Shown: positions 164 to 3,312, counted from the stretch's first letter. The stretch: 4,992 bases of DNA from a virus (IMGVR_UViG_2703718815_000007); one strand, 5' to 3'. Made by a program: numbers and translations. Notes: generated by a model from the sequence alone, not told the origin.

Positions 164-1414
164 GTGATGACCGGATTCAAAATTATGAGCAGAGCACTTA
201 ACAAACTGAGCGATACACAGCTAAGAAAAATCAACGGCACACCAGCCCCAAAAACCACATTTCTTAATGACGGTGGAAACCTGAGCGTCAGGCATTCCAC
301 CAGCGGCCTGTTAACCTGGTATTTCACCTACAGGGCAGGAGCTGGACGCCAGGTATCACCGGAACGCCTGAAGCTGGGAAATTATCCTGATCTGAGCCTG
401 AAAGCAGCCAGGGAAAAAGCGGCACAGTGTCGCGCATGGCTGGCAGAAGGAAAAAATCCACGCCATGAGCTTAATTACTCCATACAGGAAGCACTAAAGC
501 CGGTAACGGTGGGCGATGCGATCAGCTACTGGCTGGAAATGCACGTAAAGGAAAACCGTGTCGATTACGTATGCCTGAAAAGCCGCCTTAATAATCACGT
601 CATACAGCATATTGGCAATATGCCACTGGATAAATGCGAGTTACGTCACTGGCTGGCCTGTTTTGACCGGATACGCAAAAAATCCCCCGTAACATCTGGC
701 CACATGATGCAGGCGTGTAAACAGGCGCTTAAGTTCTGCCGTAAACGTCGCTACGCAGTCAGTAACGTTCTGGATGATCTCAACGTGGTGGACGTTGGCA
801 AAAAGCCGGGCATAAGCGAACGCGTGCTAAGTAACAAAGAACTGGGCGAATTATTACAGGCACTGGATAAAAAAATATTCCCGCCCTACTACAGCGCGCT
901 AATCCGCCTCCTGATTGTGTTCGGCTGCCGAACCGGAGAACTGAGATTGTCGGAGATCAGGGAGTGGGATTTTAAGGAAATGCTCTGGACAGTACCGAAG
1001 GAGCACAGCAAAACGAAGGTCGCCATATTCAGGCCAATACCGGAAAGTATTTTACCGTTCGTCACACAGCTGGTGGAGCAGAACCGACACACAGGGCTAT
1101 TACTCGGGGAACTGAAACAGGAAGCCAGCGTGTCGCAATACGGCAGATTCACACACAAAAAATTAAACCATCCTCACTGGTCACTACACGATATACGGCG
1201 CACGTTTACCACGATGCTGAACGATTTAGGCGTGGATCCACATATTGTCGAGCAACTTACCGCCCACCAGATGCCAGGGATGCAGCGAGTCTATAACCAC
1301 TCCCGTTATCTCGATGCGAAACGTAATGCGCTGGACATGTGGACAGAGCGGTTAGAGATACTGGCGGGTACTCACGAAAACGTAACCACACTGCCAATAG
1401 CCAGAGAAATATAA
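164..1414 (+). CDS. int: tyrosine site-specific integrase, P4-type (N-terminal arm-binding domain plus catalytic domain)
   Basis: 416-aa ORF. N-terminus LSDTQLRK...DGGNLSV...GNYPDLSLKAAREKA matches the P4-family arm-binding pattern (LTDxxIRK...DGGGLYL...G.YP.VSLAEAR). Catalytic motifs present: GCRTGELRLSEI (TGxRxxE box), HDIRRT (HxxR), RVYNHSRYLDAKRNALDMW (YN..Y nucleophile region). No strong SD before any start; in-frame ATGs at 164, 167 and 185. ATG 185 (MSRALNKLSDTQ) gives the more typical spacing before the LSD motif, so the true start may be 185. Confidence 0.92.
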   Translation: MMTGFKIMSRALNKLSDTQLRKINGTPAPKTTFLNDGGNLSVRHSTSGLLTWYFTYRAGAGRQVSPERLKLGNYPDLSLKAAREKAAQCRAWLAEGKNPRHELNYSIQEALKPVTVGDAISYWLEMHVKENRVDYVCLKSRLNNHVIQHIGNMPLDKCELRHWLACFDRIRKKSPVTSGHMMQACKQALKFCRKRRYAVSNVLDDLNVVDVGKKPGISERVLSNKELGELLQALDKKIFPPYYSALIRLLIVFGCRTGELRLSEIREWDFKEMLWTVPKEHSKTKVAIFRPIPESILPFVTQLVEQNRHTGLLLGELKQEASVSQYGRFTHKKLNHPHWSLHDIRRTFTTMLNDLGVDPHIVEQLTAHQMPGMQRVYNHSRYLDAKRNALDMWTERLEILAGTHENVTTLPIAREI

Positions 1415-1600: not shown

Positions 1601-1630
1601 AAAGGCGTAAATGCAGAATTTTACGCCTTT
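1601..1630. terminator. intergenic hairpin, bidirectional terminator-like (better U-tract on the minus strand)
   Basis: 11-bp stem AAAGGCGTAAA (1601-1611) with TTTACGCCTTT (1620-1630), 8-nt loop. Plus strand followed by TTTGTATCC (weak U-tract); minus strand followed by TTTTTTACATATTTTT (strong U-tract). Confidence 0.5.
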
Positions 1631-1699
1631 GTATCCAAATGAATCAAAATAGTTTTTTTCTAATTGCGCCTATTTCAGCGACGAACACCACATCACTGT

Positions 1700-1790
1700 T
1701 TGCCATTCCATAAACACCCTGACACAATCCGACACAACCCAACCCAATAACCCACCCAATGACTCTTTAAGAAACAACAAAGGGGGAATT
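1700..1790 (+). promoter_or_regulatory. alpA upstream region: CA-rich tract with GACACAA direct repeats, possible weak promoter, strong SD
   Basis: GACACAATCC/GACACAACCC at 1721-1740 (10-bp spacing), CCCAAT x2 at 1743-1748 and 1755-1760. Possible TTGCCA (1700-1705)-17-CACAAT (1723-1728), which is weak. SD AAGGGGG at 1780-1786, 4 nt before GTG 1791. Confidence 0.3.
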
Positions 1791-1979
1791 GTGTTAAGCA
1801 CAGATCGCTTTATACGTGAAAAAGAATGTCAGCAACTTACAGGCCTGAGCCGTTCATGTCGGTACCGCCTGGAAAAAACCGGACAATTCCCATCACGGCG
1901 TAAGCTCGGCGGTCGTTCCGTTGGCTGGTCTTTATCCGAAGTTCTGGCATGGAAGGAAAGCTGCGAGGCAGTTCACTAA
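1791..1979 (+). CDS. alpA: AlpA/Vis-family small HTH regulator (prophage transcriptional regulator / excisionase-like)
   Basis: 62-aa ORF with GTG start and strong SD. Sequence ...CQQLTGLSRSCRYRLEKTGQFPSRRKLGGRSVGWSLSEVLAWKES fits the AlpA-family pattern (HTH followed by ...G.RSVGW...EV..W). Placement immediately after a P4-type int is typical. Family call is by recollection, not search. Confidence 0.8.
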   Translation: MLSTDRFIREKECQQLTGLSRSCRYRLEKTGQFPSRRKLGGRSVGWSLSEVLAWKESCEAVH

Positions 1980-1984
1980 TCAGG

Positions 1985-2005
1985 CTGGCGGCACACAGCC
2001 GCCAC
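1985..2005 (+). other. GC-rich stem-loop immediately after the alpA stop, without a U-tract
   Basis: 7-bp stem TGGCGGC (1986-1992) with GCCGCCA (1998-2004), loop ACACA. No T-run on either side, so not a canonical intrinsic terminator. Confidence 0.4.
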
Positions 2006-2031
2006 CCATCCACTAATACAGAGATCTAACC

Positions 2032-3312
2032 ATGAATACTGGATATTCTCCCGAACAAGGGCGGGGCTTCGTTCGTCCTGAAAAACAGAATCTGCAAAAT
2101 TTTGCCGAAATTATTCCGGTTATTTCCGGCCTTACTGGCGGGAGTGAAACCAATATTGTTAACGCCAGAGCGTTGCAGATGTTTGATGATAAAAAGGGAG
2201 TAAATTTAACTTACACCCCTGACGGCAATCAGAATATGAGCATTATCTCTGAGTCAGGTTTCTACAAACTAATAAAAACAAAAAGCGCCCCGTTGCCGGA
2301 GCGCCTTTGTGAACAATTAACCTACTGCGCAAAAAATGAATCTGAGCAGTGGGATTATATCAACCGTGTGGTGAAGCGCCACTATTGCCGGATAACAGGC
2401 AAAACAAAGGCGACCGCAAAAGGGTCGCCAGTGGGAACAAGGGAAAACAAAAGCATCACCAACAATGCCACATTTGCGGCTGGTGGGCAATGTGATCAGT
2501 CAGATTTGGTTCGTTCCAAGGTTTGCAACGAGAGTTTTTTCCTGCGCTCTTTAAGGAATTTCTCAAGAGCAAACGAACAAGGTGCGAATCTTTCTGATTC
2601 ATGCTCTATCTTTCTGCGCCGTCTTTTCCGTGTCGGTGATAATGTTTTGGTCAATTCTTTATCGGTCATTGTGTTGTCCTGCATAGCAATGCGCCGTAAT
2701 ACCTTACACCACGGCGCTGGTGATGGTTATTCCTGCTCTTTGGCCTTGCGACGCTGGCGGTATTCAACTTCTCGCTTTAATGCTGCTGTTACAAACTGCC
2801 CTGTACTTTCACCAGGCATTTTTACCGCCTCAACATTGTTCATAACTTCATGCGGAACCCTTGCCGCAACTGTTTGTGATTTTGCGTTTACTGCTTTTGT
2901 TGCCATGTTGTGTACCCCTTACAAAAAACAAATGCAGTATGCAGGAAAAAAAATAAGTGTTCAACACTTGACGTGTTTAACACCAGGGCTTAAATTGGTG
3001 TTCAACACCTTACTGATGCAAGGTGCAGAAACGACGAAACCCGGCAGTGCGCTAACACTAACCGGGCTTCTAACCACCAACGATAGAAAGCGTATCGAGG
3101 TAGCTATGAGAAATTATACCAGACACCCGCAAGGGCGGGACTCGTACAACCTGAATAAATACATCTGGCGTTTTATCGCCCTGAGCACGGCACAACCGCG
3201 CGTGATTACCATTGAGGCCACCAGCGAACAGGAAGCGCGTCAGCAATCTCCTGATGGCTGCGTGATGGTATTCGCTGCCCGTATTCGTCAGGGGGTACGC
3301 CATGTGCAATAA
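2032..3312 (+). CDS. uncertain 426-codon open frame, probably not a single gene; the first ~130 codons look protein-like, the middle looks like antisense read-through, the last 68 codons are the separate Icd/Kil-like ORF
   Basis: Seen: no stop in this frame from 2032 to 3312. Codons ~135-290 are Cys/Ser/Leu/Arg/Phe-rich, and this frame is wobble-aligned antisense to two minus-strand ORFs with their own RBS, promoter and terminators. The segment MSIISESGFYKLIKTKSAP resembles the Bro-N/antirepressor ISE.GLY.LI..S motif, but that is a weak by-eye resemblance. Two minus-oriented terminator hairpins lie inside it. Confidence 0.25.
   Translation: MNTGYSPEQGRGFVRPEKQNLQNFAEIIPVISGLTGGSETNIVNARALQMFDDKKGVNLTYTPDGNQNMSIISESGFYKLIKTKSAPLPERLCEQLTYCAKNESEQWDYINRVVKRHYCRITGKTKATAKGSPVGTRENKSITNNATFAAGGQCDQSDLVRSKVCNESFFLRSLRNFSRANEQGANLSDSCSIFLRRLFRVGDNVLVNSLSVIVLSCIAMRRNTLHHGAGDGYSCSLALRRWRYSTSRFNAAVTNCPVLSPGIFTASTLFITSCGTLAATVCDFAFTAFVAMLCTPYKKQMQYAGKKISVQHLTCLTPGLKLVFNTLLMQGAETTKPGSALTLTGLLTTNDRKRIEVAMRNYTRHPQGRDSYNLNKYIWRFIALSTAQPRVITIEATSEQEARQQSPDGCVMVFAARIRQGVRHVQ
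2271..2304 (-). terminator. candidate intrinsic terminator for leftward transcription (distal of two)
   Basis: GC-rich imperfect stem 2285-2292 with 2297-2304 (7 of 8 pairs), loop TTGC. On the minus strand it is followed by TTTTTGTTTTTATT (complement of 2271-2284). On the plus strand it is followed only by CTTTGTG. Confidence 0.4.
2401..2429 (-). terminator. candidate intrinsic terminator for the leftward RHH cassette (proximal)
   Basis: Perfect 7-bp stem GGCGACC (2409-2415) with GGTCGCC (2423-2429), 7-nt loop. On the minus strand it is followed by TTTGTTTT (complement of 2401-2408). It lies 66 nt beyond the stop of the 62-aa minus ORF. Confidence 0.55.
2496..2684 (-). CDS. small highly basic protein of unknown function, second gene of the leftward cassette
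   Basis: 62-aa ORF MQDNTMTDKELTKTLSPTRKRRRRKIEHESERFAPCSFALEKFLKERRKKLSLQTLERTKSD. The internal ATG at 2669 has AGGA 7 nt upstream, so the product is probably 57 aa. Protein-like K/E/R-rich composition, same strand as and just downstream of the RHH gene, followed by a terminator. No family recognised. Confidence 0.4.
   Translation of the reverse strand: MQDNTMTDKELTKTLSPTRKRRRRKIEHESERFAPCSFALEKFLKERRKKLSLQTLERTKSD
2727..2906 (-). CDS. Arc/MetJ-like ribbon-helix-helix DNA-binding protein, candidate repressor of the switch region
   Basis: 59-aa ORF, hand-translated (below the track's length cutoff): MATKAVNAKSQTVAARVPHEVMNNVEAVKMPGESTGQFVTAALKREVEYRQRRKAKEQE. Fits RHH layout: beta-strand (VAARVPHEV), helix A, G-x-S/T turn (PGESTG), helix B (QFVTAALKREVE), basic tail. 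SD AAGGGG 8 nt upstream of the ATG. Fold assignment is by eye. Confidence 0.6.
   Translation of the reverse strand: MATKAVNAKSQTVAARVPHEVMNNVEAVKMPGESTGQFVTAALKREVEYRQRRKAKEQE
2936..2964 (-). promoter_or_regulatory. candidate sigma70 promoter for the leftward RHH cassette
   Basis: On the minus strand: TTGAAC (complement of 2959-2964, inside operator site 1), 17-bp spacer, CATACT (complement of 2936-2941). This gives a leader of about 23 nt carrying the AAGGGG SD. Confidence 0.35.
2955..3009. promoter_or_regulatory. operator array: three palindromes sharing the core GTGTT-N-AACAC
   Basis: Site 1 at 2955-2969 AAGTGTT-C-AACACTT (7-bp arms); site 2 at 2973-2983 GTGTT-T-AACAC; site 3 at 2997-3009 GGTGTT-C-AACACC (6-bp arms). 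The sites overlap both candidate promoters. Confidence 0.65.
2968..2996 (+). promoter_or_regulatory. candidate sigma70 promoter for the rightward icd-like/replication operon
   Basis: TTGACG (2968-2973), 17-bp spacer, TAAATT (2991-2996). Operator site 2 sits in the spacer and site 3 at the predicted start. The 5' UTR would be about 100 nt to ATG 3106. Confidence 0.4.
3106..3312 (+). CDS. small protein, first gene of the rightward operon; possibly Icd/Kil-like (positional analogue of P4 kil)
   Basis: 68 aa: MRNYTRHPQGRDSYNLNKYIWRFIALSTAQPRVITIEATSEQEARQQSPDGCVMVFAARIRQGVRHVQ. SD GAGG 5 nt upstream. The in-frame ATG at 3016 has no SD and lies about 13 nt from the predicted start, so it is disfavoured. 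The Icd-like label is from memory of annotations in P4-like prophages and is low-certainty. Confidence 0.5.
   Translation: MRNYTRHPQGRDSYNLNKYIWRFIALSTAQPRVITIEATSEQEARQQSPDGCVMVFAARIRQGVRHVQ

Follow-up and report, generated by a model that had tools for sequence, protein, structure and literature searches.

Which strand is terminated, and which is left free, between the integrase gene and the replication genes of a chromosomal island? This question is raised by IMGVR_UViG_2703718815_000007, a viral stretch of 4,992 nucleotides (nt), referred to here as the window, which is identified by its layout as a phage-inducible chromosomal island (PICI) of the EcCICFT073 type. Three hairpins lie in it: H1 (1601-1630) between int and alpA, and H2 (2285-2304) and H3 (2409-2429) between alpA and a leftward operon that consists of a YlcI/YnfO-family, ribbon-helix-helix (RHH)-like gene and orf62. 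The icd-like and primase genes are found further to the right. A reading made earlier from the DNA alone (the sequence-only reading) took all three hairpins to be one barrier against leftward transcription, permeable to rightward transcripts from int and alpA. The present analysis points to a modified explanation, which is considered probable although well short of certain: H3 and H2 would be one-way terminators that end the leftward operon, alpA transcripts would read through them, and H1 would be a separate element on the int side.

Probable one-way terminators downstream of the leftward genes

Both strands of the whole window were scored with the d'Aubenton-Carafa discriminant, a site counting as positive at d > 0. 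Three positive sites were obtained in the 5-kb window, H2 (d = 52.0), H3 (13.9) and H1 (2.1), and all three are on the minus strand. This outcome agrees with the sequence-only reading, which had named terminator prediction on both strands as a check and had described a strong U-tract on the minus strand and a weak one on the plus strand of each hairpin; the three hairpins and their quoted tails were recovered at the coordinates given above, and the T-scores of H1, H2 and H3 are all higher on the minus strand. On the plus strand, no positive site is present anywhere in the window (best score, -14.2); H1 and H2 score -20.7 and -37.4, and H3 yields no candidate. In 60 dinucleotide-preserving shuffles, the mean number of positive sites was 0.03 for the plus and 0.23 for the minus strand, three sites were never obtained, and the top d was 20.7. 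A terminator scan of the window also returned H2 and H3 on the minus strand as the two best sites. Two caveats apply to this asymmetry: the plus strand is A-rich, so that minus-strand T-runs are somewhat likelier by composition, and H1 is only marginal on the minus strand, with a plus-strand tail that is intermediate, not absent. Nothing in Rfam 15 matched 1601-2429 at E <= 1, and the sole match in the whole window was a sub-threshold, SymR-like one at 3033-3105 on the minus strand.

H2 has the features of a strong one-way intrinsic terminator on the minus strand (2272-2308; scored site 2281-2308). Its stem runs from 2304 to 2285 (arms 2285-2292 and 2297-2304) and is followed by a T-tract at the complement of 2272-2284. 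The minus-strand hairpin, which contains a U·G pair, has a folding energy of -15.4 kcal/mol, versus -10.0 kcal/mol for the plus-strand hairpin, in which this pair is replaced by a C·A mismatch. The tails read TTTTTGTTTTTA on the minus strand (T-score 5.21) and CTTTGTGAAC on the plus strand (1.72). H3, also a one-way intrinsic terminator by its features, occupies 2399-2429 on the minus strand, with a stem from 2429 to 2409 (arms 2409-2415 and 2423-2429) and a T-tract at the complement of 2399-2408. It folds at about -13 kcal/mol on either strand, and its tails are TTTGTTTTGCC on the minus strand (T-score 3.91) and AGTGGGAAC on the plus strand (0.32). Read leftward, the stop codon of orf62 is followed after 66 nt by H3 and after a further 100 nt by H2.

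The same polarity is observed in relatives, which comprise loci from Escherichia coli genomes and 69 IMG/VR loci found through AlpA. In every relative examined, the leftward operon has H2 or H3 downstream. H2 occurs there in 23 variants, throughout which the minus-strand U·G pair corresponds to a C·A mismatch on the plus strand. The stem changes on both sides from C-G to U-A and from C-G to A-U and in one case gains an inserted pair, the minus-strand tail is T5-T7 in all 23 variants, and most of them fold at about -15 kcal/mol on the minus strand versus about -11 kcal/mol on the plus strand. For H3, five arm haplotypes were found: GGCGACC/GGTCGCC, GGCCACC/GGTGGCC, TGCGACC/GGTCGCA and two with minus-only G·U pairs. 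In the minus orientation, 100% of the cells are paired; two pairs have changed on both of their sides, three cells are G·U, and this level of pairing is matched by 6 of 500 shuffles. In the plus orientation, 91.4% are paired and the three G·U cells become mismatches. All H3 variants keep the minus-strand T-tract and none has a T-rich plus-strand tail. This remains so in E41 and O121, in which an intact BRO-N gene of 192 amino acids (aa) ends directly at H3. No variant of H2 or H3 carries a plus-strand U-tract, and neither hairpin therefore belongs with the bidirectional terminators.

Of 85 loci, 82 have an H2-like hairpin and about 33 have H3; both are found in 32 loci, H2 alone in 45 and H3 alone in few, so that the tandem terminators of the sequence-only reading hold for the window and not for the family as a whole. 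The homology of the leftward module ends at the H2 T-tract behind four left contexts: the truncated BRO-N of the window, a position about 157 nt past an intact BRO-N gene, one 28 nt past an alpA-like gene, and one just past an antA/antB gene. In the O157:H7 type, which has a different RHH allele and lacks H3, the leftward operon ends straight at an H2-like hairpin. Because the module starts at the H2 T-tract across these contexts, the O157:H7 type included, H2 is, on this comparison, where the leftward unit ends throughout the family, and H3 has been added in this subtype. A derivation of H2 from ancestral BRO-N coding sequence was also considered and was rejected, since intact BRO-N homology ends at 2274 and the T-tract of H2 starts at 2275. 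In Edwardsiella, Pectobacterium, Xenorhabdus and Klebsiella, relatives of the YlcI/YnfO gene share the gene and its promoter and do not share the downstream hairpins; these loci were therefore unusable for covariation.

By their scores, their compensatory changes and their position, H2 and H3 are thus judged to be genuine Rho-independent terminators of minus-strand RNA that end the YlcI/YnfO-orf62 operon. The claim that leftward transcription from the RHH operon is stopped by tandem terminators stands for H3 and H2, which are reached before alpA, and lacks support for H1 as a third member of the barrier, since the stem of H1 relies on plus-only G·U pairs in 62 of 76 relatives.

A stop-free frame across the operon and its control region

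On the plus strand, H2 and H3 lie within open reading frame (ORF) 3, a stop-free frame of 426 codons at 2032-3312. ORF3 begins 53 nt past alpA, runs through a BRO-N relic and both hairpins, passes antisense to orf62 and the RHH-like gene and across the putative operators, and continues in frame into icd. The relic (2170-2274, plus strand) is a weak Bro-N match inside this ORF; an intact 192-aa BRO-N gene takes its place in E41, O121 and UMNF18, and the deletion junction at 2274/2275 leaves the plus frame open. Between 1980 and 3105, the three plus frames contain 21, 1 and 21 stops, and a frame as open was obtained in 0 of 2000 shuffles. Under a conditional null, in which both minus-strand proteins were kept and the non-coding sequence was shuffled, 0 stops compare with 7.4 expected (P = 2e-4); the two minus-strand genes alone explain only a factor of 0.31.

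The frame is also retained in relatives. In 56 of 70 distinct intervals between alpA and icd, one plus frame without stops spans 80% or more of the length (median 97%), and it mostly runs into icd in frame or falls 23 nt short of it. In seven relatives that have diverged by 14-19%, random placement of the substitutions would produce about 4-6 stops, and the probability of no stop is 0.001-0.007; for the closest relative, at 7.5% divergence, this probability is 0.14. The N-terminal motif of ORF3, which reads YSPEQGRGFVRP in the window, is kept as M-x3-Y-[ST]-P-E-x-G-R-G-F-[VA]-R-P in 56 loci with synonymous third-position changes, and the ORF that starts at the ATG of the motif encodes 247-474 aa in 56 of these 56 loci. 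The O157:H7 type has a different repressor allele and an equally open plus frame, the frame is stop-free across three repressor alleles, and open segments antisense to the RHH-like gene are present in other genera.

The annotation of this stretch varies among genomes. In O157:H7 PA20 (L024, 2997-3740), the annotation gives the plus-strand ORF as a hypothetical protein of 247 aa and misses orf62 and the RHH gene. In loci L001, L019, L025, L096 and L097, the same stretch appears as a BRO-N, hypothetical or icd-like pseudogene, or as an over-long Icd-like protein. An annotation problem is thereby exposed, in which a long plus-strand ORF and the leftward genes opposite it are treated inconsistently.

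Passage of alpA transcripts rightward through H2 and H3 is plausible because these hairpins are without terminator features on the plus strand, and it gains independent support from the plus frame through them, which is kept stop-free in relatives. We infer that the openness of the frame serves to keep the alpA read-through transcript translated and protected from Rho. The rightward read-through proposed in the sequence-only reading, from int as well as alpA, is accordingly retained in part: for alpA it is plausible, given the open frame and the lack of a plus-strand terminator, and for int it is disfavored by the position of H1 between the two genes and by their separate regulation. As a side observation, a GC-rich hairpin (GGCGGC...GCCGCC, approximately 1985-2006, -17.3 kcal/mol) directly follows the alpA stop codon; it has a U-tract on neither strand and is also conserved in the O157:H7-type island.

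The possibility that this AlpA acts as an antiterminator was checked by homology and gained no support there. Such a role is known for Pseudomonas aeruginosa AlpA only (PMC7969949), and a search of Protein Data Bank (PDB) sequences with the AlpA of the window gave 8c3t ("AlpA family phage regulatory protein") as the sole match and no detectable similarity to the P. aeruginosa antiterminator. No paper tying PICIs, alpA and antitermination together was found in the literature searched.

At its right end, the leftward operon meets a divergent control region (2936-3009), to which putative operator and promoter roles are assigned from repeats, a promoter scan and the promoter hexamers visible in the DNA. 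The palindrome GTGTT(C/T)AACAC occurs there as three boxes, at 2957, 2973 and 2998. These boxes bracket a predicted rightward promoter, P_R (TTGACG-17-TAAATT, 2968-2996, plus strand), and overlap a weak predicted leftward promoter, P_L (TTGAAC, 2964-2959, and CATACT, 2941-2936, minus strand). This arrangement makes the YlcI/YnfO protein a plausible repressor, and the three boxes are likely its operators; the literature searched held nothing useful on YlcI/YnfO. The first gene of the leftward operon, encoding this putative repressor, lies at 2727-2906 on the minus strand (NCBIfam NF041551, E = 2.1e-16), is annotated in relatives and has homologues in other genera. The second, orf62 (2496-2684, minus strand), was taken from the ORF list; it matched no family in Pfam and NCBIfam profile searches, and relatives annotate it as WP_000130015.1, a 57-aa hypothetical protein. 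Upstream of alpA, a promoter is predicted at 1700-1728 on the plus strand (TTGCCA-17-CACAAT with a TG), and it is kept in relatives. From consensus predictions only, this promoter and P_L converge, with a predicted transcript overlap of about 650 nt (2281-2929).

To the right of the boxes, the icd-like gene (3106-3312, plus strand; NCBIfam NF033153, E = 1e-19) is the first recognized gene of the rightward replication operon. The SymR-like Rfam match mentioned above lies antisense to its leader and scores 32.8 bits against a gathering score of 61. A leader hairpin formed by CCCGGCAGTG...CACTAACCGGG (3040-3066) shows compensatory changes in FDAARGOS_1283 and could be a C4/CI-like immunity RNA element.

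H1, a candidate antisense RNA and competing explanations

H1 is a two-faced hairpin in the int-alpA spacer (1598-1636). An A6 run (1598-1603) precedes arms GGCGTAAA (1604-1611) and TTTACGCC (1620-1627), which enclose a loop at 1612-1619, and the tail TTTGTATCC follows on the plus strand (T-score 3.06); the minus-strand tail is TTTTTTACATATTTTT (4.51). A6 on the 5' side and TTT on the 3' side thus flank one hairpin, yet the hairpin lies between co-directional genes. Folded by itself, the stem-loop has an energy of about -10 kcal/mol for plus-strand RNA and about -9 kcal/mol for minus-strand RNA. Among 76 loci, 11 arm haplotypes were found, with 11 G·U cells in the plus orientation versus 2 in the minus orientation. 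The plus-strand G·U pairs fall at five stem positions, and at least one of them, equivalent to an A·C mismatch in minus-strand RNA, is present in 62 of the 76 loci; there is also one full compensatory change from G-C to A-U. Pairing holds for 96.6% of the cells in the plus orientation versus 86.4% in the minus orientation, the plus-strand energy stays at about -10 kcal/mol while that of the minus strand falls to -6 or -7 kcal/mol in the commonest haplotypes, and the plus-strand fold is the more stable one in 19 of 26 variants. A convincing sigma-70 promoter was found by reading of the alignment and by a promoter scan neither on the plus strand ahead of H1 nor on the minus strand between alpA and H1. 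On the 3' side, relatives read TTTG(T/C)A. Because its G·U pairs favor plus-strand RNA, H1 is somewhat more likely to be a 3' hairpin of int mRNA that insulates alpA, a weakly founded assignment, but one in keeping with int and alpA being regulated separately in EcCICFT073 (PMC6092414). A minus-strand or bidirectional role is possible as well, given the invariant A6 run and the perfect stem in this window.

Between H3 and H2, a candidate for a short antisense RNA was detected on the minus strand (2305-2362). It comprises an extended -10 element, TGATATAAT (complement of 2354-2362), a predicted start near 2347-2350 and a conserved block, GCGCAGTAGGTTAATTGTTCACAAAGG (complement of approximately 2305-2331), and it would end at H2. 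In relatives, TGATATAAT is invariant and its flanks are variable; it is found at a fixed distance of 47 nt from H2 in 33 loci and occurs together with H3 in 32. Locus L099 has a different upstream segment, and TATAAT is present there too. The predicted RNA of about 72 nt (2348 to 2276) consists of a 5' stem-loop, the conserved block in single-stranded form and the H2 terminator (-29.8 kcal/mol, z = -5.8). No trans target of the conserved block stood out among the translation-start regions of the element, the only partner being the plus-strand transcript in cis, and the candidate RNA has no match in Rfam. Identity with Esr41 was rejected, as Esr41 is encoded on SpLE1.

Several of these observations weigh against the explanation put forward here. 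Termination, read-through and the role of translation are all deduced from sequence; the predicted leftward promoter, P_L, is a weak one that matches the consensus at 8 of 12 positions only; and the stop-free frame may exist for a real protein that it encodes and not for read-through. Shared ancestry is common among the relatives, and the locus counts therefore overstate the number of independent events. H2 may also belong to a separate small transcript and not to the operon. For H1, covariation is not significant against column shuffles (70/500), and its strand assignment consequently depends on the G·U asymmetry only; its plus-strand score is the -20.7 given above, its plus-strand tail is only TTTGTAT, and the A6 run, from which the minus-strand T-tract derives, does not vary among 80 of 80 regex matches. 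The plus-strand TTT is kept in 70 of 76 loci and lost in 6.

These points feed several alternatives. One of them, to which a limited probability is assigned, holds that H3 alone ends the leftward operon and that H2 terminates another transcript, an antisense RNA of about 72 nt that would start from TGATATAAT and pair with alpA read-through transcripts. The invariance of TGATATAAT amid variable flanks, the TATAAT in L099, the fixed 47-nt spacing, the co-occurrence with H3 in 32 loci, the structured fold (z = -5.8) and the plus-strand transcript as the only strong partner within the element all speak for such an RNA. However, it has no -35 element and no Rfam family, 45 loci have H2 directly after the operon without such a promoter, the 32 loci are probably of one ancestry, and the conservation of the block may be due to coding in the plus frame instead. 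This alternative can coexist with the preferred explanation. It is rather doubtful that H1 is mainly a minus-strand terminator, or a truly bidirectional one, which guards int from antisense transcription, with the plus-strand G·U pattern as an accident of sampling. The discriminant (2.1 on the minus versus -20.7 on the plus strand), the non-significant covariation and the constancy of A6, set beside a TTT that is lost in 6 loci, would agree with that role, but the commonest haplotypes have a minus-strand stem weakened to about -6 to -7 kcal/mol, the G·U cells are divided 11 to 2 in favor of the plus strand, and a minus-strand promoter was not found between alpA and H1.

The full model of the sequence-only reading, in which the three hairpins form one leftward barrier, int and alpA both read through it, and collision with the repressor operon is part of induction, is unlikely. 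All three sites do pass the discriminant on the minus strand only, the A6 run 5' of H1 is invariant, and the predicted alpA and repressor promoters do converge, with an expected overlap of about 650 nt. Against this, the H1 stem is degraded in the minus-strand RNA of 62 of 76 relatives, int and alpA are regulated separately in EcCICFT073, and most relatives have a single leftward terminator and no tandem pair. That the hairpins are not terminators at all, being instead protein-binding palindromes, recombination scars or chance structures, is very improbable: H2 does lie exactly at the deletion or recombination junction with the BRO-N relic, but H2 and H3 have compensatory changes, strand-specific G·U pairs and conserved T-tracts, their place is the 3' end of the operon whatever the context, and shuffling never gave three sites.

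In the preferred explanation, H3 and then H2 would stop leftward YlcI/YnfO-orf62 transcripts at the left edge of the module. Plus-strand RNA over the same hairpins would have no U-tract, would carry the C·A mismatch in H2 and would be read as codons; because of these three properties, transcripts from the alpA promoter would be expected to pass both hairpins, to cross the repressor operon in antisense and to reach the icd-primase genes. H1 would mark or stabilize the 3' end of int mRNA and insulate alpA, and, with the perfect stem and T6 run that it has in this window, it would be able to stop stray leftward transcripts as well.

A more specific design is offered only tentatively. A single translated, AlpA-activated message might run through H2 and H3, in antisense over the repressor operon and the three boxes, and into icd and the primase gene, such that the replication genes would be expressed without repression at P_R being lifted. 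The stop-free frame would let ribosomes follow RNA polymerase, and these trailing ribosomes would keep Rho off the transcript and assist polymerase past head-on collisions and bound repressor. The candidate antisense RNA that ends at H2 could damp leaky read-through. If true, this design would account for the way in which AlpA "activates" the PICIs of Gram-negative bacteria, and the repressor module missing from their description would be identified.

Island context and comparison with known systems

The remaining features of the window support its identification. The tyrosine integrase gene int (185-1414, plus strand) was recognized by Pfam Arm-DNA-bind_3 and Phage_integrase and is annotated as an integrase in relatives, where it adjoins roxA; alpA is located at 1791-1979 on the plus strand (Pfam PF05930, E = 2.7e-18). 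To the right of the icd-like gene, small ORFs, a DUF4222 gene and an AAA_25 primase/helicase gene follow on the plus strand of the 4,992-base window. E. coli genomes share this layout at about 90% identity next to roxA. CFT073 is among them, which is why the window is assigned to the EcCICFT073-type PICIs; the CFT073 locus (L023) aligns across the region and contains H1, H2 and H3. Thus int, a co-directional alpA, a primase/replication module and homology to the CFT073 island, the features by which a PICI of this type is recognized, are all present. Helper-phage-dependent induction and packaging have been demonstrated for EcCICFT073 itself, in which AlpA switches the island on through its own promoter, PalpA (autoactivation), a reporter fusion to the ORF after alpA is AlpA-dependent, and Pint is not under AlpA control (PMC6092414); the position of the alpA promoter in the window is a prediction. 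No repressor is known for Gram-negative PICIs, the global repressor being called "unclear" and the activation mechanism being left open (PMC6092414).

Three further observations concern the int-alpA side of the island. Across 1700-2400, alpA and the BRO-N relic are almost identical to those of E. coli relatives, whereas the int-alpA spacer and the repressor region on the flanks differ by 10-20%, a mosaic pattern that suggests recombination between island subtypes. An array of ACAACG-type repeats lies downstream of int (1437-1495), with inverted copies (GTTCCACGTTGT) upstream of int (40-125), and these may be arm-type sites of the integrase; the downstream array is poor in T and G (A31 C18 G15 T7 in 1430-1500). 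In the alpA leader (1722-1765), CACAA and CCCAAT motifs are repeated just past the predicted -10 element, and the block ACTCTTTAAGAAA is invariant in relatives. These motifs may serve the binding of AlpA or the control of translation.

As terminators, these hairpins are ordinary, and it is their setting that counts. Between alpA and the replication genes lie a leftward YlcI/YnfO operon, one-way terminators, a stop-free plus frame and possibly an antisense RNA, and these four elements together amount to a concrete, testable model of induction by translated read-through. One-way terminators inside a conserved antisense frame of a PICI were not described in the literature searched.

Among known systems, EcCICFT073 and other Gram-negative PICIs share the gene order of the window, its insertion site at roxA in relatives, and an AlpA that activates its own promoter and a downstream fusion (PMC6092414). 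The EcCICFT073 paper, unlike the present analysis, reports no terminators, leftward operon or repressor (Fillol-Salom et al. 2018, PMC6092414). With canonical Rho-independent terminators, H2 and H3 have in common a GC-rich stem, a short loop, a U-tract directly 3', a position after the last gene on the same strand, and covariation. They differ in being strictly one-way and in lying inside a conserved stop-free frame of the opposite strand, and H3 is one-way even beside the end of a convergent BRO-N gene in relatives. Bidirectional terminators between convergent genes, as seen in full-length RNA profiling of E. coli, consist of one hairpin with an A-tract on its 5' side and a U-tract on its 3' side. 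H1 resembles them in having A6 and TTT on the two sides of a symmetric stem that can be read from either side, but it stands between co-directional genes and its plus-strand tail is weak, and H2 and H3 lack a second U-tract.

The candidate antisense RNA and the icd leader recall two phage systems. In lambda, OOP RNA pairs with cII mRNA, and in the c4/icd-ant system of P1, translation of icd is needed for downstream transcription, as it avoids Rho-dependent termination. Neither system has sequence or Rfam similarity to the window, in which expression and the involvement of Rho are hypothetical. As with OOP, however, the candidate RNA of about 72 nt has its own predicted promoter and a strong terminator and faces a rightward operon, and as in P1, an icd-like gene follows a structured leader; for icd of P1, it is well known that transcription can depend on translation upstream. 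Finally, convergent promoters act as interference switches at pR/pL of coliphage 186 and at PQ/PX of the Enterococcus plasmid pCF10. In the window, about 1.2 kb separate the predicted promoters, the source of the asymmetry is one-way terminators, and interference is hypothetical. What the window would share with both switches is a pair of opposed promoters with overlapping transcripts, in which a repressor-like arm is set against a lytic or replication arm.

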